Assembly (NCBI GenBank): GCA_963753435.1
Contig: CAVWCF010000001.1
Span: 480,001-544,000, forward strand
Reading direction: 5' to 3'
From: an uncultured Actinomycetota bacterium
GTDB taxonomy: Bacteria; Actinomycetota; Actinomycetes; CAVWCF01
Length of the DNA: 64,000 nt
The notes below the pieces were generated by a model. The model saw only the letters and a program-made list of their open reading frames with translations. It was not told the origin of the DNA and made no database searches. Below are positions 18,315 to 36,033 of this stretch, in pieces. The translations under genes and the position numbers were made by a program. Position 1 is the stretch's first letter. The number at the start of each line of letters is the position of its first letter.

Positions 18315-19178
18315 CTAGAAGACCCGGGTCAACGCGACCCGCGAAAAGGCGACGGCGCGACCGCCGCCGTCCACCACGCCACGGACCGGCGCCACATCGA
18401 AGTAGTCCCGACCGGTCCCGACGCGGACGTGCTGGGCCCCGACCGGACGACCGTTCGTCGGGTCCAGGTCAACCCAGTCGCCAAGCCAGGCCTGCACCCA
18501 GGCGTGGCTCTCCCCGATCACCGCCTCGCCGATCGCGGGTTCAGCCTGCGGGTGCAGGTAGCCGGACACGTAGCGGGCCGGGATGCCCAACTCCCGCAGC
18601 AGGGCCAGGCCCACGTGCGCGAAGTCCTGGCACACCCCCATCCCCGCCTTCAGCGCCTCCAGGCCCGTCGTGTGCACCTCGGTGACACCCGGTTCGTAGG
18701 CCAGTTCCTCGCGAATCCAGTCCGACGCCGCCTGCACTGCTTCCGCGGGCGCCAGTTCCCTCCGGAAACCTTCGGCAACTCCGGAAAGGCGGCCGTCCAC
18801 GGACGTGTACTTCGTCAGCGTCAGGTACTCCAGGAAGTTGCGACGCAGGTCTGGCTCGCTCAGGTCGGCCCAGTCGATCACCGCGCTCGGTCCGGGCCGA
18901 TCCGGGCTGGCCTCGACCAGCGCGGAGTTCGTGATCGTGAGCACCGTGTGCGGTGCGGTGATCTCGACCACGTGGACGGTAGAGCCGAAATAGTCGGTGT
19001 ACTCGCGGACCCATGCGACCGGATCGACGGTGAGCCGCGAATCCAGGACCGTCTGCCCGACACCGGCCTTGGGCGTCATCCGCAACTCGTTGTAGGAGGA
19101 GGAGACCTGCGACTCGTACTGGAACACCGTCTCGTGACGGATCGACAAACGACTGATGCCCGAGCCCACGTTGCTCAT
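18315..19178 (-). CDS. Transglutaminase-like protein
   Basis: SSYNELRMTP N-domain, GVCQDFAH, ARYVSGY, SHAW, DPTN, GRDYFDV. Confidence 0.92.
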   Translation of the reverse strand: MSNVGSGISRLSIRHETVFQYESQVSSSYNELRMTPKAGVGQTVLDSRLTVDPVAWVREYTDYFGSTVHVVEITAPHTVLTITNSALVEASPDRPGPSAVIDWADLSEPDLRRNFLEYLTLTKYTSVDGRLSGVAEGFRRELAPAEAVQAASDWIREELAYEPGVTEVHTTGLEALKAGMGVCQDFAHVGLALLRELGIPARYVSGYLHPQAEPAIGEAVIGESHAWVQAWLGDWVDLDPTNGRPVGAQHVRVGTGRDYFDVAPVRGVVDGGGRAVAFSRVALTRVF

Positions 19179-20107
19179 GCCTGTGCCTCCGCGGACCATC
19201 GCACCGGGGCGATCTGCCGGAAGAACCGGTTGGCGATTGCCTCGTGGGTGTCCCCCAGGGACTGCTGCAGTTCCTCAAGCACTTTCAGCACCGAACCGGC
19301 ACCCGGGGACAGCACCGAGTAGGCGATCCGCGCCCGGGCCGCACCCAGAACACGGCTCGCCTCGCCGCCCATGCCGATGCGGCTTTCGGCCGGCTCCAAC
19401 TCACTCAGCACCTCGCCGGCCCTGTCGACGGTGTGCAGTAGCGACCGCGGGAACAGGCGATCGGACATCAGGAACTCCGCCACCTCAGCGCTGTCCAGGT
19501 GCCCGCGGTAGGCACGCAAGTAGGCCTCGTGCCCGCCGCAGGAGCGCAGCAACAGCGCCAGATCGGTTCGCTGGCTCTGTTGGGCGGCGAGCAGCCTGGC
19601 GGTCATGTCCGCGCGTTCCAGGCTGCGGCCCAGTACCAGGAACCGCCAACCGTCGTCGCGGCTCATGGTCGCCTCGATGTGGCCGCCGACAAGTGCGCTG
19701 CGCGTACGGATGAAGGCGAGGAACGAGTCCGGGCCGCTCACTCGGGCCTGGGCGCGTTGGGAGGGCAGCCGCAGATGGGTCGCGTTGATGACCTCCCACA
19801 CTTCACCGGAGATCGCCTCGCGCACACCGCGGGCGTTGTCGCGCGCGTTCCTGGCACTGGCCATGATGGAACTCGGTTGAGTCTCGTCATATGCGAGCAG
19901 TTCGAGTACGTCAGCTGCCTGCAACTGCCGGGCGGGCACGTCCACGCCCATCACCTTGAGCAATCGACGGCTCGCGCGGTCCACGCCGCGCTGCCCGAGG
20001 CCGTAGAAGGACCCGTGCACGTGCGCGTCGAGGATCCGGGCGGTGCCATCAGCCCGCTCGACGTGGCGGCCGATCCAGTAGAGGGACTCCGCCATTCGGC
20101 TCAGCAT
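19175..20107 (-). CDS. Alpha-E domain protein (DUF403)
   Basis: MLSRMAESLYWIGRHVERA, GRSLERADMTARL, FPRS; two ER motifs. Confidence 0.92.
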   Translation of the reverse strand: MLSRMAESLYWIGRHVERADGTARILDAHVHGSFYGLGQRGVDRASRRLLKVMGVDVPARQLQAADVLELLAYDETQPSSIMASARNARDNARGVREAISGEVWEVINATHLRLPSQRAQARVSGPDSFLAFIRTRSALVGGHIEATMSRDDGWRFLVLGRSLERADMTARLLAAQQSQRTDLALLLRSCGGHEAYLRAYRGHLDSAEVAEFLMSDRLFPRSLLHTVDRAGEVLSELEPAESRIGMGGEASRVLGAARARIAYSVLSPGAGSVLKVLEELQQSLGDTHEAIANRFFRQIAPVRWSAEAQA

Positions 20108-21756
20108 GGGGACCACCCTGCTGGCCGGCCCTGCTGTTGCTGCATCTGCTGCTGCTGGGAGTCGGTGTTGTCGCTCGGTCCGGTGACCGGCGCCGGCCGG
20201 TAGTCGATGTCGTCCGCTGCCAGGAGCGCCGCATCGGCCGCTTCATCATCGACGTGACCTTCGGCGGCCGGCTCGACCGCCAGCGTCCAGGTGTCCTTGC
20301 TGCCGCCGCCTTGGCTGGAGTTGACGACCAGGGACCCCTCCCGCATGGCCACCCGGGTCAGCCCGCCGGGCAGCACCCAGATCTCGTGACCGTCGTTGAT
20401 CGCGAACGGGCGCAGATCGATGTGGCGAGGCGCCAGGTTGCCGTCGATGAGTGTCGGCGCCGTGGACAGCATGACGACCGGCTGCGCAATCCAGTCCCGT
20501 GGCGATTCGAGGATCTGCAGGCGCAGCCGGTCAAGTTCCTCCTTGGTCGCCGTCGTTCCGATGACCAACCCGTGACCACCGGAAGCACCGGTCGGCTTGA
20601 TGACAAGTTCATCCAGCCGGGACAGGGCCTCGGCCCGCTGGTCGGCCTCGGCCAACCGGTACGTCTGCACGTTGTCGAGGATCGGCTTCTCGCCGAGGTA
20701 GTACTCGATCAAGTCCGGGACGTAGGTGTAGATGAGCTTGTCGTCTGCCACGCCGTTGCCGACGGCATTGGCCAAGGTGACGCTGCCGAAACGCGCTGCA
20801 TTGAGCAGGCCCGGGACGCCGAGCATGGAGTCGGCATGAAACTGCATCGGGTCCAGGTAGGCGTCATCGACACGGCGGTAGATGGTGTCGACTCGCCGCT
20901 CCCCCTCGGTCGTGCGCATGTACACGTAGCCGCCGCGAACTCGCAGATCCCGCCCTTCGACCAGTTCCACGCCCATCGCCCGAGCCAACAGGGTGTGCTC
21001 GACGTAAGCGGAGTTGTGCACGCCCGGGGTCAGCACGACCACGTTCGGCTCGTCGACTGCCGGTGCAGTCGAACGCAGTGCCGCGAGCAGGCGGGCCGGG
21101 TACTCATCGACGGGCTGGAGGGGTAGATGGCCGACCAGTTCGGGGAAGGCACGCGCCATCGCTTGCCGGTTCTCGATGACGTAGGACACCCCCGAGGGCA
21201 CGCGCACGTTGTCCTCAAGGACCCGGAACCGTCCTTCCGCATCGCGGATCAGGTCCGGTCCGGCTACGTGGATGCGTGCACCCCGCACCGGCGCGATGCC
21301 GTGGGCGGCCCGGTGGAAGTGCGGACAACTGAGCACGGCGGACCGGGGAACGATCCCCTCCTTGAGGACCTCCCCCTCCCCGTAGACGTCCGATAGGAAC
21401 ATCTCCAAGGCCCGCACCCGTTGGGCCACGCCGGCTTCTACCTCTAGCCACTCCGCGGTGGACAGCACCCGCGGGACCGGATCCAGCGGGAACGGCCGCT
21501 CCTCACCGGACAGGGAGAAGGTCACCCCTCGGTCGTGATAGGCGCTGGCCAGTGACCGCGCGCGCCGGCGCACCTCCTCTTCGCTGAGGCTGGCCAAGGC
21601 CGCAAGGACACCCTCCACCGTGGGCCGCGCGGAGCCTTCGGCGTTGATCGCCTCATCCCACGGTCGGGTCGCCGCAGGCGCGCCCGGCACGGAGTAGGCC
21701 AGGGCGGCGCTGCGGTAGGCGTCGACGAGACCGAGGTCGGGACCGGATTCGGTCAC
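20101..21756 (-). CDS. Circularly permuted type 2 ATP-grasp protein
   Basis: VLEDNVRVPSGVSY, TPGVHNSAY.EH, GNGVADDK, PGGLTRVA..VVNSSQGGGSKDTW; GGGGAGG before GTG 21756. Confidence 0.92.
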   Translation of the reverse strand: MTESGPDLGLVDAYRSAALAYSVPGAPAATRPWDEAINAEGSARPTVEGVLAALASLSEEEVRRRARSLASAYHDRGVTFSLSGEERPFPLDPVPRVLSTAEWLEVEAGVAQRVRALEMFLSDVYGEGEVLKEGIVPRSAVLSCPHFHRAAHGIAPVRGARIHVAGPDLIRDAEGRFRVLEDNVRVPSGVSYVIENRQAMARAFPELVGHLPLQPVDEYPARLLAALRSTAPAVDEPNVVVLTPGVHNSAYVEHTLLARAMGVELVEGRDLRVRGGYVYMRTTEGERRVDTIYRRVDDAYLDPMQFHADSMLGVPGLLNAARFGSVTLANAVGNGVADDKLIYTYVPDLIEYYLGEKPILDNVQTYRLAEADQRAEALSRLDELVIKPTGASGGHGLVIGTTATKEELDRLRLQILESPRDWIAQPVVMLSTAPTLIDGNLAPRHIDLRPFAINDGHEIWVLPGGLTRVAMREGSLVVNSSQGGGSKDTWTLAVEPAAEGHVDDEAADAALLAADDIDYRPAPVTGPSDNTDSQQQQMQQQQGRPAGWSPC

Positions 21757-21859
21757 TCGCTGCCTCCCCGGCTGTCGGCTGATCAAGACGCTGAGCAGAT
21801 TAGCGGGGCAGAGGGGACGAAGGACTCCCGCGCGGGGCCGGGTCCGACGCAACGATGAG

Positions 21860-24800
21860 ATGGTGACCAGTGCCACGGTGGCGACCACCGTTCCCACAAC
21901 TGTCCCTCAAGAGCCCGGCTGGGCCGTCCTCGACGGCAACGAGGCGGCAGCGTCGGTTGCCTACGCGCTGTCAGACGTTGTTGCCATCTATCCGATAACG
22001 CCGGCTTCGCCCATGGGCGAGTTCGCCGACTCGTGGTCGGGCGCGGGAAAGCCGAATCTCTTCGGCGCGGTTCCCGACGTCATCGAGATGCAGTCCGAGG
22101 CAGGAGCTGCGGGTGCCTTGCACGGCGCTGCGACGACGGGCGCGTTGGCGACCACCTTCACCGCCTCCCAGGGCTTGCTGCTCATGCTGCCGAACATGTT
22201 CAAGTTGGCCGGCGAACTCACACCGGCAGTGATTCACGTCGCCGCGCGCACTGTGGCCACGCACGCCCTGAGCATCTTCGGCGATCACAGCGACGTGATG
22301 GCTGCCCGGACCACTGGTTGGACCATGCTGGCCTCCGGCAGCGTCCAGGAAGCGCAAGACTTCGCCGCCGTCGCACATGCGGTGAGCCTCAATTCGCGGC
22401 TGCCGGTCCTGCACTTCTTCGATGGTTTTCGCACCTCGCACGAGGTCGCCAAGATTCGCCGACTGGCTGCGGACGACCTGCGGGCGCTGGTTGACGCTGA
22501 CCGGGTCGCCGAGCATCGCGCCCGCGGCCTGACTCCGGACGCCCCGGTTCTGCGCGGCACGGCGCAGAACCCCGACGTCTTCTTCCAGGCCCGGGAGGCG
22601 GCGAACCGCTACCACGACGCCGTCCCCGATGCGGTTGCGTCGGCCTTCACGGCTTTGGCTGAGCGCACGGGGCGGACCTACCAACTGGTCGACTACCACG
22701 GGGCGCCGGACGCTGACCGCGTCATCGTGCTGATGGGCTCGGCGGCCGGGACGGTCGCCGAAGCGGTGGACGCGCTGGTGGCTGGTGGCGAGAAGGTCGG
22801 TGTGGCCACGGTTCGACTCTTCCGGCCCTTCCCCGCTGCGGCGCTGCTGAGCGCGCTGCCCGAAACTGTTCGCGCCGTGGCAGTCCTGGACCGCACCAAG
22901 GAACCGGGCGCCCCCGGTGAACCGCTGTTCCTGGATGTGGCCGCGACGCTGGGGCAAGCAGTGGCAACCGGTCAACGGAGCACGGCGCCGAGAGTCATTG
23001 GTGGCCGATACGGACTGTCCTCAAAGGAATTCACCCCAGCCATGGCAGCGTCCGTGTTCGAGCACGCCAGCGCCGTCCTGGCCGACGGCCTGGACGCCCC
23101 CGGAGCACCGCCGGCGCACGGCTTCACCGTCGGCATCGTCGACGACGTGACCCGCCTTTCGCTGCCCACACACGAACCGCTGCCCAACCTCGCCCCCGTA
23201 CGCACCGCGGTGTTCTACGGCCTCGGTAGCGACGGCACCGTCAGCGCCAACAAGGCCGCGGTGAAGATCCTCGGCGAGAACACCGACCTGCACACGCAGG
23301 GCTACTTCGTTTACGACTCCAAGAAGTCCGGTGCTGTCACCGTCAGCCACCTGCGGATGTCCGAGGACCCGATCCGTTCGGCCTACCTGGTTTCCGGGGC
23401 GGATTTCGTCGCCTGCCATCAGTTCTCCCTGCTGGAGCGAATGGACGTACTCGGCCTGGCGCACCCAGGGGCGACGTTCCTGCTCAACAGCCAGTACGGC
23501 CCGGACGAGGTTTGGGACCACCTGCCAGTTGAGGTGCAACAGGCGATCGTGGACAAGGGGCTGCGGCTGTTCGTGATCGATGCCTACGGCGTATCGGCCG
23601 CCGCCGGACTGCGCCAGCGCATCAACTCCGTGATGATGCCGGCGTTCTTCGCGCTATCAGGAGTGCTGCCCGCGGACGAGGCCCTCGGTCACATCCGGCG
23701 GCACTTCGAGAAGACTTACGCACGCCGCGGCCGCACCGTGGTGGAGCAGAACTTGGCCGCGATCGATGCCGCGCTACAGGCGCTGCACGAGGTCGAAGTG
23801 CCCGGGACGGTCACCTCGCAGATCCGCCGCAGGCGCCCAGTGCCCGAGGACGCACCGGACTTCGTCCAACGCGTCACCGCCCGGATGATCGCCGGTGAGG
23901 GCGACCTGCTGCCGGTCAGCGCGCTGCCCGTGGACGGGTCGTTCCCGACTGCCACCGCGCAATACGAGAAGCGCACGCTGGCGCTGGAGATCCCGATCTG
24001 GGATCCCAGCATCTGCATCGACTGCAACAAGTGCGCCATGGTCTGCCCGCACACCGCTATTCGCGCCAAGGTCGCCGAGCCCGCCGCATTCGACATGCTC
24101 GGGACCGATCTGCCGCGCAAGGACTTCCGGTCCCGCGAACTGCCCGACCGCGCATTGGTGATCCAAGTCGCCCCCGACGATTGCACCGGCTGCGGCATCT
24201 GTGTCGACGTCTGCCCGGCCCGCAGCAAGTCCGAGGCCAAGCACAAGGCGATCAACATGGAGCCGATCGGGGAGCACCTGGACGTGGAACGCGAACGGTT
24301 CGCCGCGTTCCTGGACCTGCCCGAGGCTCCCCGCGACCTGGTCCCGCACGGGACGATCAAGGGCTCCCAATTGCTGCAGCCGCTGTTTGAGTTCTCCGGC
24401 GCCTGCTCCGGATGCGGTGAGACGCCGTATCTGCGGCTGGTCTCGCAGCTGTTCGGCGATCGCGCGATCATCGCCAACGCGACCGGCTGCTCGTCGATCT
24501 ATGGCGGGAACCTGCCGACCACCCCCTGGTCGGTGAACGCCGACGGGCGCGGTCCGGCCTGGTCCAACTCCCTGTTTGAGGACAATGCCGAGTTCGGCCT
24601 GGGGATGCGGCTGGCGCTGGATCAGGCGCAGGCGCTCGCGATCGAGTTGCTGCGGCAGTTGGCTCCCCGCATCGGCGACGACACGGTGACAGCACTGATC
24701 AGCGGCATCGGCGCCCGCGATGACGTCGGGATCGCCGATCAACGAACCCGAGTGGCGGCGCTGAAGCAGCAACTCGGCGCAGTGGACGACAGCGGTCCCG

Positions 24801-25525
24801 ACCACCTGGCCGCACGCACCTTGCTGACCGTGGCTGACGACTTGGTCCACCGCAGCGTGTGGATCGTCGGCGGGGACGGCTGGGCCTACGACATCGGCTT
24901 CTCCGGCCTGGACCACACCTTGGCCGCCGGACGTGACGTCAACCTGCTGGTCCTGGACACGGAGGTCTACTCCAACACCGGGGGCCAGGCGAGCAAGTCC
25001 ACGCCCCGCGCAGCAGTGGCGAAGTTCGCCACCGGCGGCAAGCCAACACCGAAGAAGGACCTCGGGATGATCGCGATGGCCTACGGCACTGCGTATGTCG
25101 CCCAGATCGCATTGGGCGCCAACGACGTGCAGACCTTGCGCTCCCTGCAGGAGGCCGAAGCCTTCCCCGGACCCTCGCTGGTCATCGCGTACTCGACGTG
25201 CATCGCACACGGCATCGACATGAAGACGTCCATGACGCACCAGAAGGACGCCGTGGCAAGCGGCTACTGGCCACTGTTCCGATTCCGGCCGGGTAGCGAC
25301 GAGCACGAACACCCGTTCAGCCTGGACTCCAAGGAGCCGTCGATCCCGTTCAAAGACTTCGCCAAGTCCGAGGCACGGTTCGCAATGCTCGCTCGCACTC
25401 ACCCGGAGGCGGCCGAACACCTTGGCCGCGCCGCCCAGGCCGACATCGACGAACGCTGGCGCTACTACAGCCAACTGGCCGGACTGGAACGCTCGGTTGC
25501 GGCGGATGCGGAGGAAACGGAATGA
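21860..25525 (+). CDS. nifJ: Pyruvate:ferredoxin/flavodoxin oxidoreductase, single-chain PFOR
   Basis: DGNEA, YPITP, QSEAGAAG, YDSKKSG, two CxxCxxCxxxCP Fe-S motifs, EFSGACSGCGET, GGDGWAYDIG, YSNTGGQ. Confidence 0.96.
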   Translation: MVTSATVATTVPTTVPQEPGWAVLDGNEAAASVAYALSDVVAIYPITPASPMGEFADSWSGAGKPNLFGAVPDVIEMQSEAGAAGALHGAATTGALATTFTASQGLLLMLPNMFKLAGELTPAVIHVAARTVATHALSIFGDHSDVMAARTTGWTMLASGSVQEAQDFAAVAHAVSLNSRLPVLHFFDGFRTSHEVAKIRRLAADDLRALVDADRVAEHRARGLTPDAPVLRGTAQNPDVFFQAREAANRYHDAVPDAVASAFTALAERTGRTYQLVDYHGAPDADRVIVLMGSAAGTVAEAVDALVAGGEKVGVATVRLFRPFPAAALLSALPETVRAVAVLDRTKEPGAPGEPLFLDVAATLGQAVATGQRSTAPRVIGGRYGLSSKEFTPAMAASVFEHASAVLADGLDAPGAPPAHGFTVGIVDDVTRLSLPTHEPLPNLAPVRTAVFYGLGSDGTVSANKAAVKILGENTDLHTQGYFVYDSKKSGAVTVSHLRMSEDPIRSAYLVSGADFVACHQFSLLERMDVLGLAHPGATFLLNSQYGPDEVWDHLPVEVQQAIVDKGLRLFVIDAYGVSAAAGLRQRINSVMMPAFFALSGVLPADEALGHIRRHFEKTYARRGRTVVEQNLAAIDAALQALHEVEVPGTVTSQIRRRRPVPEDAPDFVQRVTARMIAGEGDLLPVSALPVDGSFPTATAQYEKRTLALEIPIWDPSICIDCNKCAMVCPHTAIRAKVAEPAAFDMLGTDLPRKDFRSRELPDRALVIQVAPDDCTGCGICVDVCPARSKSEAKHKAINMEPIGEHLDVERERFAAFLDLPEAPRDLVPHGTIKGSQLLQPLFEFSGACSGCGETPYLRLVSQLFGDRAIIANATGCSSIYGGNLPTTPWSVNADGRGPAWSNSLFEDNAEFGLGMRLALDQAQALAIELLRQLAPRIGDDTVTALISGIGARDDVGIADQRTRVAALKQQLGAVDDSGPDHLAARTLLTVADDLVHRSVWIVGGDGWAYDIGFSGLDHTLAAGRDVNLLVLDTEVYSNTGGQASKSTPRAAVAKFATGGKPTPKKDLGMIAMAYGTAYVAQIALGANDVQTLRSLQEAEAFPGPSLVIAYSTCIAHGIDMKTSMTHQKDAVASGYWPLFRFRPGSDEHEHPFSLDSKEPSIPFKDFAKSEARFAMLARTHPEAAEHLGRAAQADIDERWRYYSQLAGLERSVAADAEETE

Positions 25526-26517
25526 GCGTCGACCTGACCGTCACCTACCTGGGGATGCAACTGCATTCCCCGCTCGTCGCCTCGGCCGGTCCGCACACCC
25601 GCAGCCTGGACAACCTGCGGCGCCTGGAGGACGCCGGCATCGGGGCCGTGGTGCTGCCCTCCCTCTTCGAGGAGCAACTGATCGCGGAGTCGACACAGGT
25701 CGACGCACTGGTGGGCGACTTGGGTGCCGGCTTCGCGGAGACCAGTGGCTTCTACTCCGAGGATGTCGCGTTCGCGACGGGACCAGATGAGTACTTGGAG
25801 TTGTTGGCCGGCGCCAAGGCGGCCTTGAGCGTCCCCGTGGTCGCCAGTCTCAACGGCATCAGCGCTTCCGGGTGGACTCACTACGCCTCGCTGCTGCAGG
25901 AGGCCGGAGCCGACGCGCTGGAACTCAACGAGTACCGAATTGCGGCGGACCCGGACCGCTCCGCCGCCGACGTGGAGGCGGAGGTGCTCGACGTGATCGA
26001 GCAGGTCCGACAGGCCGTGAGCATTCCGATCGCGGTCAAACTGGGCCCCTACTTCACGTCCCTGCCGCATCTGGTGCGCCGCATCGAGAAGTCCGGGGCC
26101 AGTGGGCTGGTGCTGTTCAACCGCTTCTACCAGCCCGATTTGGATTTGGAGTCACTGCGCGCGACACCGGCCCTGGTGTTGTCCACCTCGGCTGATCTGC
26201 GCCTGCCACTGCGCTGGATCGGGCTGCTGCGCCACCTCACCGACCTGAGCCTGGCGTTGTCATCCGGAGTGCACACGGCCGAGGACGCGATCAAGTCGAT
26301 CCTGGTCGGCGCAGACGCGGTGATGATGACGTCGGCCTTGCTGCACCACGGCGCCGAGCACGTCACAACCGTGCAGGCAGGCATGCAGGCCTGGTTCGAC
26401 GAGCACGAGTACGAGTCGGTTGACCAGGCCCGCGGTTCGGCCGCTTGGGCGACCGGGCCGGACCCCACCGCCTTCGAAAGAGCCAACTACCTGACCGTCC
26501 TGACCAGCTACGTGTGA
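25522..26517 (+). CDS. Dihydroorotate dehydrogenase-like flavoprotein (PFOR-associated type)
   Basis: YLGMQLHSPLVASA, PSLFEEQ, ALELN, KLGPYF, LFNRFYQPD, FERANY; ATGA overlap with PFOR. Confidence 0.9.
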   Translation: MSVDLTVTYLGMQLHSPLVASAGPHTRSLDNLRRLEDAGIGAVVLPSLFEEQLIAESTQVDALVGDLGAGFAETSGFYSEDVAFATGPDEYLELLAGAKAALSVPVVASLNGISASGWTHYASLLQEAGADALELNEYRIAADPDRSAADVEAEVLDVIEQVRQAVSIPIAVKLGPYFTSLPHLVRRIEKSGASGLVLFNRFYQPDLDLESLRATPALVLSTSADLRLPLRWIGLLRHLTDLSLALSSGVHTAEDAIKSILVGADAVMMTSALLHHGAEHVTTVQAGMQAWFDEHEYESVDQARGSAAWATGPDPTAFERANYLTVLTSYV

Positions 26518-26529
26518 TCGGAGGAGCCG

Positions 26530-27414
26530 ATGAGCCGACTGAATGAAGTTAGGGAGCCGCTGGAGCGGTTCCGTAGCGCCTTCGCAGAGCACCTTCCGGC
26601 CGCGGACCGATTGGACTTCAACGTCGACCGGCTGACTCCCGAGGGGCGGACCTATCTGCGTGCGGAGACCTACGCAACGCCCACCTTGTCCCGGCTGGTT
26701 ATGGAGGAGTACCTGATCGGTAGCCGCATGCACGGCACGGTGATCATGGCCTTCGGCCAGCCGACCAGCGAGCAGCCGATCTTCTTCTACCAGCTCGGCG
26801 GGGTGGGCGACCGTTCGATCGCAGTGCTGGACATCAGCCCCGTCACTGCCGACCTTGATCTGTCCGCACTCGCGCCGGTGCACGCGCACTACGCCGAAGC
26901 GCTGGGCCTGACCGAGACCGCAACCGGATGGCTGCAAACCATCTGCTCGCCGTACTTGCTGCACTGCAACTACGCGGAGTTGGACGAGGAACTGTTCATC
27001 GAGGCCATGGCGGCCTACTTGGACGTCTGGATGACGCATTTTCACGGCGCGGAACTGCCCACAGGCTCCGATGCCCGCACCGAGCAGGTGACCAACGCGC
27101 TGTACAAGTTCAAGTTCCAGCTGCACCACCACGACCCGGCGTACGGGTTCTTCGCCAGGGCCTGGGGCAAGCCCGCCGCGGACGCATTCATCGACATCGA
27201 ATGCGGGGACCATCCCGCCTACCTGCCGCCGGTTTCCCTCGACGAGCATGTGAAGGTCTGGCACAACGACGAACTCAACGTCGTGTGGACCGAGGCCGCC
27301 CAGCAGGTGGTCGAAGCGGCGCCGGATGCCGACGCACGCCGGGAGCAGGTGGAGGCCGCTGCTGCTGAGGCTGGCTTCGGCATCGTCACCGCCGAACTGC
27401 TGGATCGCTTCTGA
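26530..27414 (+). CDS. Ferredoxin-dependent bilin reductase (PcyA/PebA/RCCR)-fold protein with C-terminal PCP_red-like domain
   Basis: YATP..E, QPIF, AVLDISP, W..ICSPY and HDP..FFARAWG..AADAFI follow the motif order of PcyA (recalled sequence); C-terminal WTEAA..P..R..E..A.EAG..VTAELL; GGAGGAG RBS. Confidence 0.78.
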   Translation: MSRLNEVREPLERFRSAFAEHLPAADRLDFNVDRLTPEGRTYLRAETYATPTLSRLVMEEYLIGSRMHGTVIMAFGQPTSEQPIFFYQLGGVGDRSIAVLDISPVTADLDLSALAPVHAHYAEALGLTETATGWLQTICSPYLLHCNYAELDEELFIEAMAAYLDVWMTHFHGAELPTGSDARTEQVTNALYKFKFQLHHHDPAYGFFARAWGKPAADAFIDIECGDHPAYLPPVSLDEHVKVWHNDELNVVWTEAAQQVVEAAPDADARREQVEAAAAEAGFGIVTAELLDRF

Positions 27415-27433
27415 GCCCGGGCGGGCAACCTGG

Positions 27434-28081
27434 TCAGTTGTTCGATCCGACCAGCACAGCGGGAACGTCAATTCCCAACTCCCCCGCCGCCTCAACTACT
27501 GCCGGCGGCAACGGATCGAAACGGGCGCCTTTGGTCTTCGCGGTCATGGCCGCATGGATAGCGGCACGGATCGAATCCTCAACCAATCCGCGAGTCCGTT
27601 CGGCTTCAGCCGGTCCGGCCCAGGTTTCGATCCGCCAACGTTCCACCGCCCGCAATGCAATCGACGCCGCCAGCGTCCCCGCGTAGCAGAGCTGAAACGC
27701 CACCAGCCGCGCGAGGCGATGCGCGGCTTCAGCGGAGTCTCGGTCGATCTCCAGGTCGCCGCTACCGGTAACCCAGCCGAGCAACTGGCGAGCGTCGAGT
27801 CGGGTGCCGTCCGGCAGCCGCACAGTTTCCCCTTCCGGGGGGATGAGCATGGCGACGGGCGGCTCACCCAGGACGTCTGCGACTGCGGCCCACTCATCCA
27901 GCGAGAGCCGACGACGCCCCTGTTCGATGTTCGTCACCGCGGTGGCGTTCAGCCCGTAGCCGGCGGCCTCCAGCCGATCCCCCAACTCCCGCGCCGACCA
28001 GCCGCGGGCGCCACGGTGCACCCGCATCCATCTGACGACGGTCTCGCCCAGGTCTGTGCCGGTCTTGGCCTTTGTCGTCAT
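27434..28081 (-). CDS. XRE-family HTH transcriptional regulator
   Basis: RGWSARELGDRL..TAVTNIEQGRRRLSLDEWAAVADVLG. Confidence 0.85.
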   Translation of the reverse strand: MTTKAKTGTDLGETVVRWMRVHRGARGWSARELGDRLEAAGYGLNATAVTNIEQGRRRLSLDEWAAVADVLGEPPVAMLIPPEGETVRLPDGTRLDARQLLGWVTGSGDLEIDRDSAEAAHRLARLVAFQLCYAGTLAASIALRAVERWRIETWAGPAEAERTRGLVEDSIRAAIHAAMTAKTKGARFDPLPPAVVEAAGELGIDVPAVLVGSNN

Positions 28082-28182
28082 GCACCAAACCTATGGCCTC
28101 AAGGGAAGCCATCTCACCGGATCAGCTTTACGCCAGAAGAGTCGCCGCAAGGTCGCCTCAGTCCCGCATGCACATGCGCCAC

Positions 28183-28374
28183 TCAGCCGTAGAACAGCTG
28201 AAACAACTCATAAACGGCGATGGCCGGCCAGACGATCGCCTTGGGGATGGCCAGGACGTAGTCCCAGAAGCGGCTTGCCTCGACGAAGAAGTAGATGCCC
28301 GCGCCGATCAAACCGAGTCCGTAGACCGCGTTGCCACCTGCACTGGTGCCAGCAGAACTGTTCGATGAACCCAT
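28183..28374 (-). CDS. Small 2-TM membrane protein
   Basis: GNAVYGLGLIGAGIYF..FWDYVLAIPKAIVWPA; GGAGGGAGG RBS before ATG 28374. Confidence 0.8.
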   Translation of the reverse strand: MGSSNSSAGTSAGGNAVYGLGLIGAGIYFFVEASRFWDYVLAIPKAIVWPAIAVYELFQLFYG

Positions 28375-28507
28375 TTCGCCTCCCTCCGATTGCCGATCCC
28401 AGGCTAGGGGTTGACCGCGCCGGCGATCAGGACTGAAGGCCCTGCGCTGCGGGGCTGTCCTGCGGCAGGCTTCGCGGTAGCCGACAGGGGATGCGGCGTG
28501 GAGGTGT

Positions 28508-28891
28508 GTGGTGGCCAAAGTGCAGAAGGCGACCGCTGCGACGGGTTCGGCCGGGAAGGTTCAGCCCGCCTCAGTGGACCAGGAGTCACCGAAGCCCGGC
28601 ATCGTGCTGCGCAGCTACCGGTTCAGCCTCAAATCGGTGGAGAAGACCAGCGTCTTCGTCGGCGGCAACGCCATCGGGGCGCTACGCGTCATCGGCCTAC
28701 CCAAAGGCGCCACATCCAAGTTGCGCAACGGCCAGGCAGCATCACTGCGTGGTGTCACCCAGTGGTCTGACGACGTCGGCACCAAGGTCGCCCACGGCAT
28801 CGGCAAGGGCAAGGTGCTGGCCAAGCAGGGAGCCAAAGACGGGGCCCGCGCCTGGGCGCGCGGCATGAAGTTCTTCATCACGCTGCGCTGA
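28508..28891 (+). CDS. Hypothetical basic protein
   Basis: GGAGG upstream, GC3-rich codons, Lys-rich sequence. Confidence 0.6.
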   Translation: MVAKVQKATAATGSAGKVQPASVDQESPKPGIVLRSYRFSLKSVEKTSVFVGGNAIGALRVIGLPKGATSKLRNGQAASLRGVTQWSDDVGTKVAHGIGKGKVLAKQGAKDGARAWARGMKFFITLR

Positions 28892-28982
28892 CCCGCCGCC
28901 TGACCCCCGGTGTGGCGAGACGTCGGCAGGTCCGGACCGCGTCGCCCACGTTGGCTAGCGTTGCGTCGTGATCGGCGTAGGG

Positions 28983-29120
28983 ATGCGTGCGGCCACGTTT
29001 GCACTGATGCGTGGCCTTGCGGACATGGTGACCTGGGCGCTGTTGGGCGTGGTGCTGCCCCTGCTGGGAGCGTGGATGGCAGTCCAGACCCTCGGGTTCT
29101 ACCTCTGGCTGCGGCCCTAG
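28983..29120 (+). CDS. Small membrane peptide (45 aa), below the ORF-track cut-off
   Basis: MRAATFALMRGLADMVTWALLGVVLPLLGAWMAVQTLGFYLWLRP, translated by hand. Confidence 0.5.
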   Translation: MRAATFALMRGLADMVTWALLGVVLPLLGAWMAVQTLGFYLWLRP

Positions 29121-29158
29121 CCGGACTACCCCCCGGAACCGGCCCTCGTTGAACGAGC

Positions 29159-29822
29159 TCAGTCGAGGCTGAACGGCGGGTACTTGTCAGTCAGCAACAG
29201 CGTTGCGTAGGCAAGGACTCGAAGCGTCCAGCGCCCGACCCCGACCACGTAGTCGAACAGGCCCTGCGGGTAGCGGCCGGTGAACAGAATCGCGAACCAG
29301 GCGATGATCACGGCGAAGACCGCGCCGATGTACAAGAAGAACAGCACCACGTAGTGCGGGATCGCGAGGAACCACTTGACGAGGGGCAACCAGCGGTTCA
29401 GGTCCTGCGGTACATCGGGATAGTCGAGATCCAGGTGCACCGCCTGCTCGTCCTCGGTCGACGGGTACGCGTCCGTCAGCAACGCAAAATACGCGCCAAT
29501 ACGGGCACCGAAGCGGTTGAGCTCCAGTGCGAAGTTGAACCACCACCGCGGGTACCGCTGCCTGAAGATGATCAGCAGCGCGGTCACCACCGCCAGGCTC
29601 GTCGCGATGCTGCCCGAGCTCCAACTCGCGCTGGAGACAACATCACCGGCCTCATCGATCAGAGTGACGGTGCTCTCCGAACTCGTACTCAGGATTGAGA
29701 AGACAATTGCGATCGGGATGATCCAAAGGATCCGGACAGAACGTGGTGAAGCGGTCCAACTGCTCCGGGTAGTCGACCTCTAGGCGCGCTGCGTAACGGC
29801 TATCTGAACTGCTCGTAGTCAT
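29159..29822 (-). CDS. DUF4389 membrane protein, frameshifted around 29640-29740
   Basis: LEVDYPEQLDRFTT in one frame; YPRWWF, LNRWLPLVKWFLAIPHY, ILFTGRYP, TDKYPPFSLD in another. Confidence 0.82.
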
Positions 29823-29945
29823 GCCTCCATCTTGCAGGCTTTGGGTCACGACCGTGATCAGATTTGGGATTCGGACGGGCGCCAGACCTGGTCACCGTTG
29901 CCGATCGGAATCGACACCGGAGGCCGTTCCGGCCAGGCTTGGGTG

Positions 29946-30599
29946 ATGGGCGCATTGCTACGAGGCGCGACAGTTGCGGCGGCGGCGGGAGCCGTCTACG
30001 CGCTGCGGCTACGCCAGATCCAGCTGCACTGGGGCGCGACGCCGAGCGAGTTGGGCGCAGAGTTGCCCGGGGACTCCATCCTCGAGGAGGCCGACCTGGT
30101 CGCTACCAGAGCCGTCGGTATCGATGCCCCGGTGGCGGCCGTCTGGCCATGGCTGGCCCAGATGGGCCAAGGGCGCGGCGGTCTGTACTCCTATGACTGG
30201 CTGGAGAACCTCGTCGGCTGTCAGATTCACAGCGCGGATCGAATCGTGGCGCAGTGGCAAGGGGTGAGCGAGGGAGACGAGTTCCGACTGCACCCGGATG
30301 TCGCACTGCGGGTGGAGCTGGTAGACCCGCCGAACGCCTTGGTGGTGCGCGGTGGCGTACCGGCGTCTGGAGCCGTTGGTGAGGACGAAGCCCCCTATGA
30401 CTTCACCTGGGCTTTCGTGCTCCAGCCGTCCGGAAGCGACCGGTCGCGACTCGTTGTCCGGGAGCGGTACCGCTACCTGACCAAGTGGGCTCCGCTGCTA
30501 GTCGAGCCGGTCGCCGCCGTCAGCTTCGTCATGACCCGCAGAATGCTTGTCGGCATTCGCGAGCGCGCCGAGGCACTGCCAACGCACTCCCCTAGCTGA
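29946..30599 (+). CDS. SRPBCC-like family protein
   Basis: WGAT..LPGD, ATRAVGIDAP..VWPWLAQMGQGRGGLYSYDWLEN, MTRRMLVGIRERAE. Confidence 0.85.
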   Translation: MGALLRGATVAAAAGAVYALRLRQIQLHWGATPSELGAELPGDSILEEADLVATRAVGIDAPVAAVWPWLAQMGQGRGGLYSYDWLENLVGCQIHSADRIVAQWQGVSEGDEFRLHPDVALRVELVDPPNALVVRGGVPASGAVGEDEAPYDFTWAFVLQPSGSDRSRLVVRERYRYLTKWAPLLVEPVAAVSFVMTRRMLVGIRERAEALPTHSPS

Positions 30600-30615
30600 C
30601 GCCTAGGATCGCGAT

Positions 30616-30915
30616 GTGGACAACGTTGAGCGCTTCGAGGCATTCACCGAATTGGTGACCTCCTCGTTGGAGAACGCGATGGGAACGATGCAACGAGTCC
30701 ATCAGGGTTCGGTTGACCTATCCGTGGAGTTGTTCCAACAACTCGGCTTCTGGCAGGAGCCGGCGGAGCGATACCGCAAGGCTCACGACGCTGCAATCTC
30801 CAACGTGTACGGGCGCATCGTCGAGGTGAACAACGACTTCGGCGCCATGCTGGTTCAGCAGGCCCACAATCTGGACCGGTTCCTGCGCTCAGTTGTGCCC
30901 GACGAGAAGGCCTAG
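30616..30915 (+). CDS. Hypothetical all-alpha protein
   Basis: 99-aa ORF with natural composition; TAGGAT -10-like hexamer just upstream. Confidence 0.7.
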   Translation: MDNVERFEAFTELVTSSLENAMGTMQRVHQGSVDLSVELFQQLGFWQEPAERYRKAHDAAISNVYGRIVEVNNDFGAMLVQQAHNLDRFLRSVVPDEKA

Positions 30916-30926
30916 CGCCAGCCAGC

Positions 30927-31406
30927 TCACCCGGCGGCTGCCGCCTCCAGCGCAGCGATGTCGATCTTGCGCATCTGCAGCATTGCTTCGAACACCCGCC
31001 GAGCTCGTTCGGCATCGTCGCTTGTCGTCATCTCCAGCAGGAACCGAGGCGTTATCTGCCAGGAGAACCCCCAACGGTCCTTGCACCAGCCGCAGGCGCT
31101 CTCGGAACCACCGGTGTCCACGATCGCGTTCCAGTAGCGGTCGGTCTCGTCCTGGTCCTCCGTGATCACCATGAAACTCACTGATTCGTTCGGCGTGAAG
31201 TTTGGTCCGCCGTTCAGGCCCACGAATTTGCGACCCAACAGCGTGAACTCGACGGTCAACGCGTCACCGGCCCGCCCGCCGGGATAGTCACTCGCTGCCG
31301 CGTTGACCCGGCCGACCTGGCTGTCCGGGAACGTCTTTGCATAGAACTCCGCGGCCGGAAGGGCCTGCTCGTGGTCGAACCAGACACACGTGATCATTTC
31401 TGTCAT
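30927..31406 (-). CDS. VOC family protein (3-demethylubiquinone-9 3-methyltransferase-like, PhnB)
   Basis: LNGGP.F, SFMV..EDQDETDRYWNA, CGWCKDRWGFSWQITP. Confidence 0.92.
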   Translation of the reverse strand: MTEMITCVWFDHEQALPAAEFYAKTFPDSQVGRVNAAASDYPGGRAGDALTVEFTLLGRKFVGLNGGPNFTPNESVSFMVITEDQDETDRYWNAIVDTGGSESACGWCKDRWGFSWQITPRFLLEMTTSDDAERARRVFEAMLQMRKIDIAALEAAAAG

Positions 31407-31704
31407 CGTCGGCTCCCTGTGATGGCCCGGGCGAGTTGCCCAGCAAAGCGTCAAATGGTCTCGGTCATCGTCGCCTGCTGCGCTGCAGTTGCCAGCAGCA
31501 ACTCACCTTGCCACGAACGCGCGCGCTCCGGAGATATTGGATCTCCTCGCCGTCGTTGCAGAGCGCAGGGGGCGACCAACGCTGCGCCGTCTCGACTCGG
31601 ACCTATAGGCCAATGGTCACTACAGGTGGCACCGCAGGCCACCTAGCGTCACAAATGCGCTGGCCGGGCAGGCCTTGCCACGGCCAGGAATGGAGGTGGC
31701 GGTG

Positions 31705-31998
31705 ATGTACGGCACGGTGATGGTCGCGCAACTGAAGGAACCCACCACAGCGGAAGAACTACGCGAATCGATGGAGAAGTGGCGGGCATCACGCCCGGGC
31801 CGGCCCGGTCTGGTGGATGCCCAGATGCTGCTGACCGACGATGGCGGCCGGGTCGTCTCCGCGGTGCGTTTCGCCTCAAGAGAGGACTACTGGGCGATCG
31901 CGGACGACGTCGCACACGACGAGTGGTTCCAAACCAGGATTGCGCCGCTGCTGGAGGGGGAACCGACCTGGATGGACGGCAACTGGATCGAGGACTGA
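31705..31998 (+). CDS. Dimeric alpha-beta barrel (ABM-like) hypothetical protein
   Basis: MYGTV..VRFASREDYWAIADD..LLEGEPTWMDG; GGAGG RBS. Confidence 0.72.
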   Translation: MYGTVMVAQLKEPTTAEELRESMEKWRASRPGRPGLVDAQMLLTDDGGRVVSAVRFASREDYWAIADDVAHDEWFQTRIAPLLEGEPTWMDGNWIED

Positions 31999-32019
31999 CC
32001 TACCGGCAGTTCAGCCCGG

Positions 32020-32355
32020 CTACTCCTCCTGCTTGCGCAGTTCCGCCTCGAACCGGGACTCAATGGCGGAGACCTCGAATCCGAGAGCACGGGCGATGTT
32101 GCCGCTGGCCGAAACGGCCCGCGCGCTTCCGGCGATCGGCGCGACCGCGATCAGCACGCCCTCAACGTCCTCCAGGGTGATCCCCACATCCCTGGCTGTT
32201 TCGGCGTTGGCCAGGTAGGACACCGGAGCCGCACCAATGGCGGCCAGCGCGGCGATCCGGACAAGCATCAACTCACGAGGCGGCAGTTCGCACGCCTTCA
32301 GCGATGACCAAGTCATCGAGGCCAGCACATCCAACAGCGGTGTCTCGTCTGCCAT
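32020..32355 (-). CDS. Carboxymuconolactone decarboxylase/AhpD-like protein
   Basis: RELMLVRIAALAA..SYLAN, VLIAVAPIAGSAR. Confidence 0.82.
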   Translation of the reverse strand: MADETPLLDVLASMTWSSLKACELPPRELMLVRIAALAAIGAAPVSYLANAETARDVGITLEDVEGVLIAVAPIAGSARAVSASGNIARALGFEVSAIESRFEAELRKQEE

Positions 32356-32518
32356 CGGCACTCCTAGGTCGCGGAAAGGCACCGGGGGGATCCGGCACGG
32401 CCGAGCCTAGGGCGAACGAGGCGAATCGTGATGCAGCGCGGCGTCGGCGTCGGGATCTGGGAATGCCGTTGACGCCGGTAGTTGCCAAGAGGAGAGTGAA
32501 CATTCGCAACATCTACGG

Positions 32519-32890
32519 ATGGAGAACGTTGTGGCTTCCCTGGCAAAGCAGAACATGGCGGATCCGAACGAAACCCGGCCCTTCGCGGCCAACGGCAAAG
32601 TGGACGTAGTCACCCTCGGCGACTTCACTCTCGGCAAAGGGGTCTTCGAGGCTGGGTGGCGATGGTCAACGGATGTGAAGCCAATCGCCGGTACCGACAG
32701 TTGCATGGCCGAGCACAGCGGCATCTGCGTTTCCGGCAGCATGACCGTCCGAATGGACGACGGCACTGAAGCGACGGTGTCGGCCGGAGACGTTTTCACC
32801 ATTCCCGGCGGGCACGACGCCTGGACGGTCGGCGACGAGGCCTGCGTGCTCTACGACACCGGCGTCGCCCGCTACGCCAAACCGAGCTGA
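32519..32890 (+). CDS. Cupin domain protein
   Basis: GWRWSTDVKPIAGTDSC..H.G, IPGGHDAWTVGDE. Confidence 0.88.
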   Translation: MENVVASLAKQNMADPNETRPFAANGKVDVVTLGDFTLGKGVFEAGWRWSTDVKPIAGTDSCMAEHSGICVSGSMTVRMDDGTEATVSAGDVFTIPGGHDAWTVGDEACVLYDTGVARYAKPS

Positions 32891-32925
32891 GCTCCAGGCC
32901 GCGTCCGCCGAACTAGCGTGCAGCT

Positions 32926-33114
32926 ATGAAAGAAGGCTCAAGGGCTTGGTATGCGCTCGTGTTCGTGCTGTCCGCGGCCGCCGGGTTCCTCTTCTACTGG
33001 CTCGTTGACGGTTTCGAGTTCAAGTGGGAGCAGTTGCTTGCTGCCCTGGTCTGGGGCGTGATCGGCTTGATCACCGCCGGCTACTTCCTCAGGAAGAACC
33101 GCCCCAGGGGATAG
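32926..33114 (+). CDS. Small 2-TM membrane protein
   Basis: 62 aa with two hydrophobic helices; TAGCGT -10 hexamer 6 nt before the ATG. Confidence 0.7.
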   Translation: MKEGSRAWYALVFVLSAAAGFLFYWLVDGFEFKWEQLLAALVWGVIGLITAGYFLRKNRPRG

Positions 33115-33132
33115 CACCCGGGAGCGTGCCAA

Positions 33133-34152
33133 TCACCTCGACTCGATGGTGGACCCGCCGGATGCGTCAGCGGTGACGTCGGTGGGGTTGCCGCCGTATC
33201 GGATCTTCGACGCCCCTGACGCTGTGGCGTCCAATGACGTTGTTGCGGTGACGTCCATCGTGCTGGCCCCATCGGCGCTGGCCATGACTGCCGACGCGTT
33301 GAAGCCAGCTAGGGAAACGGTCGAAGCCCCGCTCACCTCAGCATCCACAACATCCCCTGCGCCGGTTACCTCGATGGTGCTGGCACCGGAGGCGTCCACA
33401 GTGAGATTGTTGCTGTCCAGACGGAGGACGACCCGGCTGGCGCCACTGGCCTCGACAACGAACACGTCCGAGGCGAGTTGACCCTGACTAACCACGGTGG
33501 CGGCTCCGGAAGTGCTGATCGCCGACAAGGCCGAGTTGGGGACGGTGACTGTCGCTTCGAGGGTGACGTCGCGGTAGTTCCCCCGCAGACTCAGAGTGAG
33601 CGTTTCCCCGCTGACGGACGCCTGCACGGCATCGAGGAGGTTGTCGTCCGTGCGAACCACCACCCCAAACGCCTCCCCCGTCCTGATCTCCACGTCGAAG
33701 GAGGAATCGGCAGTAAGCCGACTGAACTCATTCACACTTGGCGTCACCGATTCGATCCGGCCTGAGCCGGCTTCCCAACCACCCACGGCATCCAACGTCG
33801 TCGAGACGAGAGATCCGAATGTCACTGCGAGCAGCAGGATGGCGGCTGGGATCAGTCCCAGAAAGCCAATGACTATGCCGGCGAGGGCGAACCCGTCGCC
33901 CGACTCCCTGGACGTGCGAATCTGAGACCGCGCCCGGAAACCAAAGATGATCGCAAGCACGCTCCCAACGCCAAGTGCCCAGAACACACTTAGTACGAAG
34001 GAGGCAATAGCCAGGCCGTTGGTCCCCGTCGCGGCAGCGATCTGGGGGTTTGCGTGCGCTCGCTGATCCGTCCAAGCGTTTCCATCCCAATACCGCTGGA
34101 CGCCCACCTGCTCGGGATCCGGGTACCAACCCGGAGGAATCAACTCAGACAT
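33133..34152 (-). CDS. Membrane protein with DUF2510, DUF4190 and GIN (DUF2807) beta-helix domains
   Basis: [17 protein letters not shown]; TNGLAIASFVLS..G.GFALAGIVIG; DDNLL and repeated ASGAS units; GAAGGAGG RBS. Confidence 0.85.
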   Translation of the reverse strand: MSELIPPGWYPDPEQVGVQRYWDGNAWTDQRAHANPQIAAATGTNGLAIASFVLSVFWALGVGSVLAIIFGFRARSQIRTSRESGDGFALAGIVIGFLGLIPAAILLLAVTFGSLVSTTLDAVGGWEAGSGRIESVTPSVNEFSRLTADSSFDVEIRTGEAFGVVVRTDDNLLDAVQASVSGETLTLSLRGNYRDVTLEATVTVPNSALSAISTSGAATVVSQGQLASDVFVVEASGASRVVLRLDSNNLTVDASGASTIEVTGAGDVVDAEVSGASTVSLAGFNASAVMASADGASTMDVTATTSLDATASGASKIRYGGNPTDVTADASGGSTIESR

Positions 34153-34417
34153 GAAACCTCCTTCGGCGACAGACAGCCGTCGCGTCTGGAGCACGCAAAC
34201 GAACTCCTGCGCCCTGGTTTCAGCATCGCCGGCGCGACCGACCGCACAAGGGAAGGAGGTCCCTTCCCACGTTTGTGCGGTCATGCATACGCGAACACGG
34301 CACTGCCAATACCACTTCTGTCCGCTTCCTTCGGGCGAAACCGGTCGAGGCCGCCTTACGCCTCACCGATGGGACTGTGCTTGTCGCTTGGGGCGTCAGA
34401 GGGCCCGGGGTCCGCCG

Positions 34418-35866: not shown

Positions 35867-35896
35867 ATCAACCACCTCCGCCCACCACATTCCTCG

Positions 35897-35995: not shown

Positions 35996-36033
35996 GGCTC
36001 GACGCTGCCGAGCAATCCCCCGGCCAACTCTGA

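Follow-up and report, generated by a model that had tools for sequence, protein, structure and literature searches.

Ferredoxin-dependent bilin reductases (FDBRs) such as PcyA, PebA, PebB, HY2, PebS and PcyX share one fold (PF05996; PDB 2d1e, 2x9o, 6qwq, 6kme), and the active site of PcyA contains the triad Glu76-His88-Asp105. FDBR-fold proteins that lack part of this triad have been described from non-photosynthetic bacteria under the names pre-1, pre-2 or pre-3 (Rockwell 2023, PMC10151467; Frascogna 2026, PMC13446030), and the first of these papers treats pre-PcyA together with an outgroup of RCCR-related sequences. The fold is shared by plant RCCR/ACD2 (PF06405; PDB 2zxk, 3aga), which is known alongside pheophorbide a oxygenase (PAO). 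Here we describe a gene, P0001, in a 64,000-nucleotide stretch of DNA (the window) from an uncultured Actinomycetota bacterium (GCA_963753435.1, contig CAVWCF010000001.1, positions 480,001 to 544,000). What is new is a clade with an active-site combination that is absent from the published table of PMC13446030 and that is tied by genomics to candidate pigment catabolism, not to light sensing or light harvesting.

Unplaced, uncharacterised FDBR-like clades are mentioned in PMC13446030 and PMC13193486, and the P0001 family may overlap with them. Such published groups include a Ca. Schekmanbacteria group (PMC10151467) and, in PMC13193486, an 'Unknown' D6734_12105 and two clades of 'placement uncertain'. 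Like the P0001 family they lie between the FDBRs and RCCR, and the comparison with them is by published description only. Structural homologues of RCCR, PAO, CLH and PPH are reported to co-occur in Actinomycetota and Pseudomonadota, and prokaryotic chlorophyll degradation has been proposed (bioRxiv 10.64898/2026.03.19.712979). The main text of that preprint does not contain 'bilin reductase', 'FDBR', 'PcyA', 'operon' or 'synteny', and its Shewanella experiment covers early steps only. PMC9306834, as far as its accessible text goes, adds nothing further on bacteria. No paper on the P0001 family or its tie to RCCR-like genes was found in a literature coverage that excludes most subscription journals.

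Fold and active site of P0001

The gene, its domains and the codons of four active-site positions are as follows.

26530..27414, + strand: FDBR-fold protein gene P0001, 294 aa (open reading frame call, Pfam, AlphaFold, Foldseek, VIA-align)
26530..27225, + strand: FDBR alpha/beta/alpha domain, approximately residues 1-232 (PF05996 at 38-221; VIA-align model range 2-232)
27271..27411, + strand: PCP_red-like helical C-terminal domain, residues 248-294 (VIA-align to 2kru; PF08369 weak)
26704..26706, + strand: Glu59, aligned with PcyA Glu76, a predicted proton donor (HMMER alignment; invariant 122/122)
26740..26742, + strand: Val71, at the PcyA His88 position (HMMER alignment; invariant 122/122)
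26791..26793, + strand: Gln88, at the PcyA Asp105 position (HMMER alignment; invariant 122/122)
27133..27135, + strand: Asp202, at the PcyA Asp220 / HY2 Asp256 / PebS Asp206 position, predicted proton donor (alignment; table 2 of PMC13446030; invariant 122/122)

P0001 matches the Pfam family Fe_bilin_red (PF05996) at residues 38-221 with E 7.9e-18 (65.4 bits against a cut-off of 31). An AlphaFold model built on a 45-sequence alignment (predicted local distance difference test score 93.5) was compared with known structures. The top Foldseek matches were PcyA, PebB, PebA and HY2 (E 3.5e-10 to 3e-8), followed by RCCR, PebS and coproporphyrinogen oxidase (CPO). VIA-align gave Z scores of 23.3 for PebB, 23.1 for PcyA and 22.7 for both HY2 and PebA, with root-mean-square deviations (rmsd) of 2.7-3.4 over 219-238 aligned residues. 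The alignment to 6qwq had Z 23.3 and rmsd 2.7 over 223 residues, and that to RCCR had Z 20.4. On the Pfam score, homology to the FDBRs is beyond chance. An initial annotation, made by a model from the DNA letters and their translations, had called the product a divergent FDBR with a non-canonical site, and the fold matches and the residue map bear this out. It had ended the gene at 27220, which cuts off residues 232-294, as the open reading frame reaches 27414.

The protein is distant from the described enzymes, with 13-20% identity to FDBRs and about 23 bits on the NCBIfam PcyA and PebA models (PcyA 22.8) against cut-offs of 206 and 263. There was no match to RCC_reductase (PF06405) at E 0.1. 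The HMMER alignment to Synechocystis PcyA has several gaps of 1-3 residues and 17-19% identity (single-sequence E 0.005-0.055). The nearly gap-free alignment that the initial annotation reported was thus overstated, and its six motif pairs are all present in the HMMER alignment. In that alignment E59, V71 and Q88 fall on PcyA E76, H88 and D105 at an offset of 17, as the initial annotation had it. Its constant offset fails at D202, which falls on D220 at an offset of 18. D202 also aligns to the aspartate of the DP pair in PebA and in tomato HY2, and the D220 position is equated with HY2 Asp256 and PebS Asp206 in table 2 of PMC13446030, in keeping with the proposal that D202 is the second acidic residue of PebA/PebS-type enzymes.

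In place of the PcyA triad, then, P0001 has E59/V71/Q88. Judged from the alignment, the signature E59/V71/Q88/D202 fits no FDBR in the published table of PMC13446030. According to table 2 of that paper PebA, PebB, PebS and algal HY2 have an acid at 105, and plant HY2 has Asp at the His88 site and Asn at 105; P0001 has neither arrangement. In the published descriptions, pre-PcyA proteins lack Glu76 and have Thr or Asn at 88 and Glu (pre-1) or Asp (pre-2, pre-3) at 105. The P0001 family is the opposite, with Glu76 kept and Gln at 105 in 122/122 proteins. The conservation alignment comprised 122 proteins, P0001-P0122, in which 12 positions are invariant: E59, Y61, G69, V71, Q88, G90, G91, D101, W134, K195, H199 and D202. 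A decayed pseudo-enzyme was rejected for the family by the polar residues among them.

Val and Gln at the His88 and Asp105 equivalents could also mean that P0001 is a non-catalytic tetrapyrrole binder or carrier, holding phototoxic intermediates (pheophorbide, red chlorophyll catabolite (RCC), porphyrins) of the catabolic route considered below. The position of PcyA Gly103 is Phe, Met or Thr in most family members, which may reshape the pocket. In the accessible part of PMC13446030, pre-3 D96N lost most activity and gained haem and protoporphyrin binding. The same source argues for catalysis as well: Arabidopsis HY2 has Asn at the 105 site, and pre-1 E91Q and pre-2 D91N stay active, so loss of Asp105 does not imply inactivity. 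Glu59, Lys195, His199 and Asp202 are invariant in the family, and ferredoxin-reducing oxidoreductases recur as neighbours of the gene. We regard a pure binder as unlikely; the initial annotation had raised this option, which is weakened by the amide-tolerant enzymes and by the invariance of these residues and of Q88.

The C-terminal tail, absent from the FDBRs and missed by the initial annotation, superimposes on the PCP_red domain of BchB (2kru; Z 6.7, rmsd 1.4, 47 residues aligned). The PCP_red (PF08369) match is weak, with E 0.022 at residues 253-293 of P0001 and E 1e-4 in two homologues. Length exceeds 270 aa in 94/122 homologues, and the remainder are mostly short forms of about 236 aa that have no tail. 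Because such forms exist, the tail is dispensable. It may, speculatively, be a docking module; no paper on PCP_red function was found in the literature covered.

Phylogenetic position and spread of the family

Homologue searches returned 44 proteins from the single sequence and 143 from a profile (120 of the 143 listed). Searched with a profile, 1.84 billion representatives yielded 67 matches, including a sister group at about 25% identity (P0126, P0129, P0132-P0135) that mostly retains E59, Q88, D202 and the tail. A pattern search for the genome context of this sister clade had no conserved stretch to work with. ESM Atlas contained FDBR and RCCR clusters at 0.93-0.94 and no exact match. No fused longer form (558-2000 aa) was present among 7994 candidates scored, which is weak evidence. 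Further unclassified FDBR-like proteins (P0153, P0155, P0158, P0159, P0161, P0163, P0164, P0180 and P0183) score under all NCBIfam cut-offs, and in P0161 an N-terminal ferredoxin is fused to the FDBR domain.

Trees were built from 60/80 aligned rows under a quick mixture model and from 45 rows under a careful LG+G4 model, after near-duplicate and fragmentary rows had been dropped. The reference set comprised two PebA from cyanobacteria, two PebB, a eukaryotic PEBB-like protein and three PcyA-annotated proteins (named plasmid and phage records); pre-PcyA, HY2, PebS, PcyX, PUBS and plant RCCR sequences were absent. The family and its sister group share one long branch (SH-aLRT 100 with the mixture model; 100/100 with LG+G4). 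Both trees separate this branch from PcyA and PebA/PebB as well as from the bacterial RCCR-like proteins and other paralogues. With LG+G4, P0001 lies outside the PebA+PebB clade (99/94) and outside the bacterial RCCR-like clade (100/100). The approximately unbiased (AU) test under LG+G4 rejected a joint clade with the three PcyA rows (p-AU 0.029). Union with or a sister position to PebA/PebB was not rejected (p-AU 0.072), nor was the same with the RCCR-like proteins (p-AU 0.059).

Among the groups in these trees, and as far as aligned sequences can tell, the family forms a clade of its own within the bilin-reductase/RCCR fold. Its separation from pre-PcyA appears in the residues and the genome context, with pre-PcyA set apart by its published descriptions. 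The initial annotation had suggested a clade outside PcyA, Peb, PcyX and pre-PcyA. The trees uphold this for PcyA and favour it for Peb, and the residue signature is unlike that of any of pre-1, pre-2 or pre-3 in the table of PMC13446030.

In GTDB the family was found at 28 loci, in 27 metagenome-assembled genomes (MAGs) of Gammaproteobacteria/Pseudomonadota and one of Actinomycetota. Among 60 relatives of the genome that holds the window, matches occurred only in two genomes of the same family, one of which has broken pieces only. Broken copies lie at G001:C8 ~789,970-790,640 and G002:C9 ~157,440-157,690. GC content, the tmRNA tag and the nearest titled homologue suggest that the window is actinobacterial. 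Near-identical DNA was present in sediment and soil metagenomes of three studies (word share of at least 0.2; rows below 0.2 were not used).

Genomic context of the family

Co-occurrence was examined in 29 carrier genomes, namely the genome of the window (G000, 98% complete) and 28 others; 27 carriers are proteobacterial. Heme oxygenase (PF01126) was found in 0/29 carriers, the genome of the window and 28/28 others alike. The genome of the window had no match to the phytochrome PHY domain, reaction centre, HemS or PF00502 (phycobilisome-type globin). In five genomes tested, Photo_RC and HemS were each found in 0/5, in agreement with the non-phototroph context proposed at first. PF00502, which may miss BBAGs, gave one weak match (1/5). 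Since heme oxygenase is lacking in all carriers, and phytochrome and PF00502 globin in the genome of the window, the usual logic of heme oxygenase, FDBR and biliprotein is absent.

These absences bear on whether P0001 is an ordinary biliverdin reductase, HY2- or pre-PcyA-like, that converts biliverdin, either scavenged or formed by a non-canonical route, to a bilin of the phytochromobilin or phycoerythrobilin type. An amide at 105 with Asp at 256 resembles land-plant HY2 (table 2 of PMC13446030), neither sequence nor tree is a good predictor of FDBR regiochemistry according to the accessible text of PMC13193486, and the AU test did not reject grouping with PebA/PebB. Such an enzyme is nonetheless quite unlikely given the counts for heme oxygenase, HemS, phytochrome and PF00502. 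Furthermore, pre-1 and pre-3 are described as sitting with heme oxygenase, BBAG and V4R genes, none of which was recognised beside the P0001 family in the annotated loci.

The carriers have a different set of genes in common. RCC_reductase (PF06405) matches occur in 27/29 carriers (26 over the cut-off) and in 0/299 other Gammaproteobacteria; in the class of the window's genome they occur in 12/198 other genomes. Within the order of G063, 10/10 carriers and 55/191 non-carriers have PF06405 (Fisher p 8e-6, which kinship overstates), and five carriers first seen in that order have it in 5/5 (Fisher p 0.002, likewise overstated by kinship). A second PF05996 match is present in 18/29 carriers, compared with any match in 1/299 other Gammaproteobacteria. 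A profile for one Rieske subfamily, A4, was built from the Rieske protein of the RCCR operon described below and those beside gammaproteobacterial paralogues (threshold E 1e-70). A4 is present in 29/29 carriers, with 3-21 copies in each of the 27 proteobacterial ones, and in 1/299 other Gammaproteobacteria (at most 6 candidates scored per genome). The link of the family to RCCR-like and Rieske genes, which the initial annotation did not have, holds in two phyla. Expansion of A4 to as many as 21 copies was seen in gammaproteobacterial MAGs of 2-3.7 Mb (G061-G088). Small actinobacterial genomes (1.0-2.5 Mb) of the f9 family (G010, G054, G411, G434, G457, G478, G498 and G518) each have 2-4 RCCR-like genes.

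In the genome of the window, the second PF05996 match is itself an RCCR-like gene (PF06405 E 2.9e-12; best PDB match Arabidopsis RCCR), which belongs to an operon.

G000:C1 ~1,563,900-1,571,100 (L067:3362-10642): RCCR operon with RCCR-like, PF12740 hydrolase, Rieske/VanA_C oxygenase, second RCCR-fold gene, 323-aa unknown protein, short-chain dehydrogenase/reductase, nitrilase-family and Amdase-family genes

The operon is conserved in four other actinobacterial genomes (G001, G491, G408 and, rearranged, G010). RCCR operons also occur in genomes that have no P0001-family gene (G010 and G054), which argues that the family gene is accessory. An RCCR-like query against plasmids gave no match.

A local profile found seven FDBR/RCCR-fold matches in the genome of the window. 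Four further ones lie at G000:C2:126920-127783, C1:809421-810212, C1:1302668-1304341 and C1:894719-895633; they comprise a second RCCR-like gene and a match coupled to a second gene of the Rieske subfamily, while of the other two, one is extended at the N terminus and one is very divergent and stands next to TetR. The carriers have a second FDBR clade (L047-L062; for example L050:7789-8478 and L051:7673-8371) with Met/Asn/Phe at 76/88/105 and Asp at 256, whose genes often adjoin one for a molybdopterin oxidoreductase, an esterase, a Rieske protein or an amidohydrolase. In a third clade (L063-L065) position 105 is Glu. At L047:1707-2711 a divergent CPO III-like gene (56 bits against a cut-off of 297) has a Rieske gene as its neighbour, along with UbiD and a paralogue of the FDBRs.

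For the neighbours of the family gene itself, a metagenome scan yielded 39 loci, and 75 family genes were pooled, which fell into 32 groups at 85% identity, 23 of them with at least 5 kb of DNA. A Rieske gene lies within 6.5 kb in 5/32 groups, three of which (L134, L138 and L153/155/159) have it on the same strand at less than 500 bp. One group of the 32 has an RCCR-like gene within 1.8 kb, in the order RCCR-like, Rieske, family gene (L153/L159). At L137 the family gene is followed by one that shares 61% identity with a member of the RCCR operon of actinobacteria. Genes for 2-oxoacid:ferredoxin oxidoreductases lie within 6.5 kb in 4/32 groups, in four arrangements: on the same strand in the window, divergently with a spacing of 171 bp in L135/136, convergently at a distance of 20 bp in L017/028, and at 5.5 kb in L004/148. 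One fixed operon for the family was not found, as contexts vary by subgroup, and a universal link to pyruvate:ferredoxin oxidoreductase (PFOR) was rejected on the same 4/32.

In the window the genes upstream of P0001 are arranged as follows.

21860..25525, + strand: pyruvate:ferredoxin (flavodoxin) oxidoreductase, nifJ type (TIGR02176, 1614 bits)
25522..26517, + strand: dihydroorotate dehydrogenase (DHOD)-like flavoprotein gene, PRK07565 (NCBIfam NF005741, 409 bits against a cut-off of 303)
26520..26526, + strand: Shine-Dalgarno-like GGAGGAG, after the upstream stop (26515-26517) and before the P0001 ATG
18315-21897, - strand: trio of genes, circularly permuted ATP-grasp and two that we take to be alpha-E-like and transglutaminase-like, divergent from the PFOR operon

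The start of the DHOD-like gene overlaps the PFOR stop (ATGA), and the P0001 ATG is 12 bases past the stop of the DHOD-like gene. From this spacing the three genes likely form one operon. The PFOR is the only full one found in its genome and is the predicted source of reduced ferredoxin for P0001. Short RNA-library contigs (1-12 differences) lie on the P0001 gene and two span the DHOD-like/FDBR junction; such contigs cannot show transcription and were not counted. A promoter and terminator scan found nothing over chance level. Directly past the P0001 gene, from about 27400 to 40000, the GC content drops to 62-64% from 67-70%, and the stretch has small genes with a helix-turn-helix gene first. 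It is possibly an acquired region.

At G000:C1 ~890,600-894,400 (L126:6618-10403) and at 30616-30915 of the window there is a module in which an unknown protein of 84 aa is combined with small phasin-like helical proteins, ATP-grasp and TetR. It is 51-67% identical between the genome of the window and gammaproteobacterial loci L001, L003-L005, L144 and L148, where it flanks the family gene, an identity that suggests shared transfer. The 84-aa neighbour and a 281-aa protein of the window's genome (L126) gave no hhalign match to A1, so the 84-aa protein is not called PCP_red. A second copy of the 84-aa protein lies at G000:C1 ~824,680-825,920 (L125:9679-10922) in one run with a DUF169 gene and a 4Fe-4S dicluster ferredoxin, which is a candidate electron carrier.

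A putative step in tetrapyrrole catabolism

On a modest balance of probability, P0001 would reduce an opened tetrapyrrole of chlorophyll type (phyllobilin-like) by two electrons in a ferredoxin-dependent manner, as part of a predicted PAO/RCCR-like catabolic route in bacteria. This reading builds on the observed fold, residue positions and their invariance, on co-occurrence and on some adjacency. The initial annotation had foreseen a different substrate or regiochemistry, and genome context favours the substrate part. In the proposed route an A4-subfamily Rieske oxygenase would open the macrocycle in the manner of PAO. The RCCR-like proteins, on the strength of their Pfam and PDB homology, would reduce the first opened product. 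P0001 would then act as an accessory step, binding the linear product in its FDBR pocket and receiving electrons one at a time from ferredoxin that the adjacent PFOR would reduce. Glu59 and Asp202 would donate protons in place of the missing His88/Asp105 relay. RCC and primary fluorescent chlorophyll catabolite (pFCC) carry a terminal vinyl group. The site of reduction may, at a guess, be this terminal vinyl, because it is comparable to the exo-vinyl group whose reduction is served by Glu76 in PcyA (PMC13446030).

Several observations weigh against this reading. The weakest links are the putative substrates of the Rieske and RCCR-like partners. Rieske and RCCR-like genes co-occur and are in part linked, as in a PAO/RCCR-like system, and the PaO domain is missing: the Rieske proteins had no match to PF08417, only to Rieske and VanA_C and weakly to KshA_C/Aromatic_hydrox. 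Their best PDB matches, SxtT/SxtDIOX and NdmA, act on other substrates, and as many as 21 A4 copies in a genome suggest many substrates. The PF12740 hydrolase matches PETase/cutinase structures and no chlorophyllase. The RCCR-like protein of the window's genome has Ala at the Asp105-equivalent site, and no bacterial RCCR-like protein with a demonstrated substrate was found in the accessible literature. The P0001 gene and the RCCR operon of its genome lie about 1.06 Mb apart. The pair of PFOR and DHOD-like genes is widespread, and its adjacency to P0001 may be incidental. About 22/32 groups have unrelated neighbours (nitric oxide reductase-like; F420; polyhydroxyalkanoate (PHA)-granule/TetR/ATP-grasp; acyl-CoA dehydrogenase/polyketide synthase). 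The carriers come from about two related lineages, so that their counts lack independence, and part of the A4 profile derives from genes of the carriers. In the order of G063 heme oxygenase is rare anyway (12/201 genomes); its lack was therefore rejected as a depletion signal and stands only as an absence.

The Rieske proteins bear equally on a further explanation, in which P0001 reduces a non-tetrapyrrole (an N-heterocycle, aromatic or lipid-like compound) with ferredoxin and the Rieske/RCCR-like system degrades something other than a pigment. The copy number of the subfamily, its lack of a PaO domain and its nearest PDB relatives, which act on heterocycles, are consistent with this, as are neighbours that include UbiD, CoA-transferase, amidohydrolase, nitrilase, acyl-CoA dehydrogenase and PHA-granule genes. 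Yet all characterised members of the fold (FDBR, RCCR, CPO) handle tetrapyrroles according to the accessible text of PMC13193486, and the carriers hold several such folds, with the second PF05996 matches, the RCCR-like genes and the CPO-like gene in L047. We consider a non-tetrapyrrole substrate improbable and favour the reductase of an opened chlorophyll-type tetrapyrrole.

More tentatively, and with clearly less than even probability, the clade would be an unrecognised enzyme of bacterial chlorophyll/porphyrin mineralisation, PFOR-coupled and ferredoxin-dependent with a Glu/Asp-only site. It would act on phyllobilins past the RCCR step and would mark pigment scavengers of sediment and soil as a guild spread over two phyla. 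In the genomes of this guild one Rieske subfamily reaches as many as 21 copies, and several different paralogues with the FDBR/RCCR/CPO fold occur. Chlorophyll breakdown amounts to about 1.15 billion tonnes a year, a figure cited in bioRxiv 10.64898/2026.03.19.712979. For bacterial chlorophyll breakdown beyond the first steps the family gives a candidate enzyme. P0001 is a small, soluble and confidently modelled candidate with a defined mutant set (E59, Q88, D202) and a named set of partners. Its natural site, with Glu76 and neither His88 nor Asp105, offers a test of how FDBR regiochemistry is set and of where FDBRs came from. If the broader reading is true, the FDBR-fold enzymes would include, next to their light-harvesting branch, a large one devoted to catabolism.

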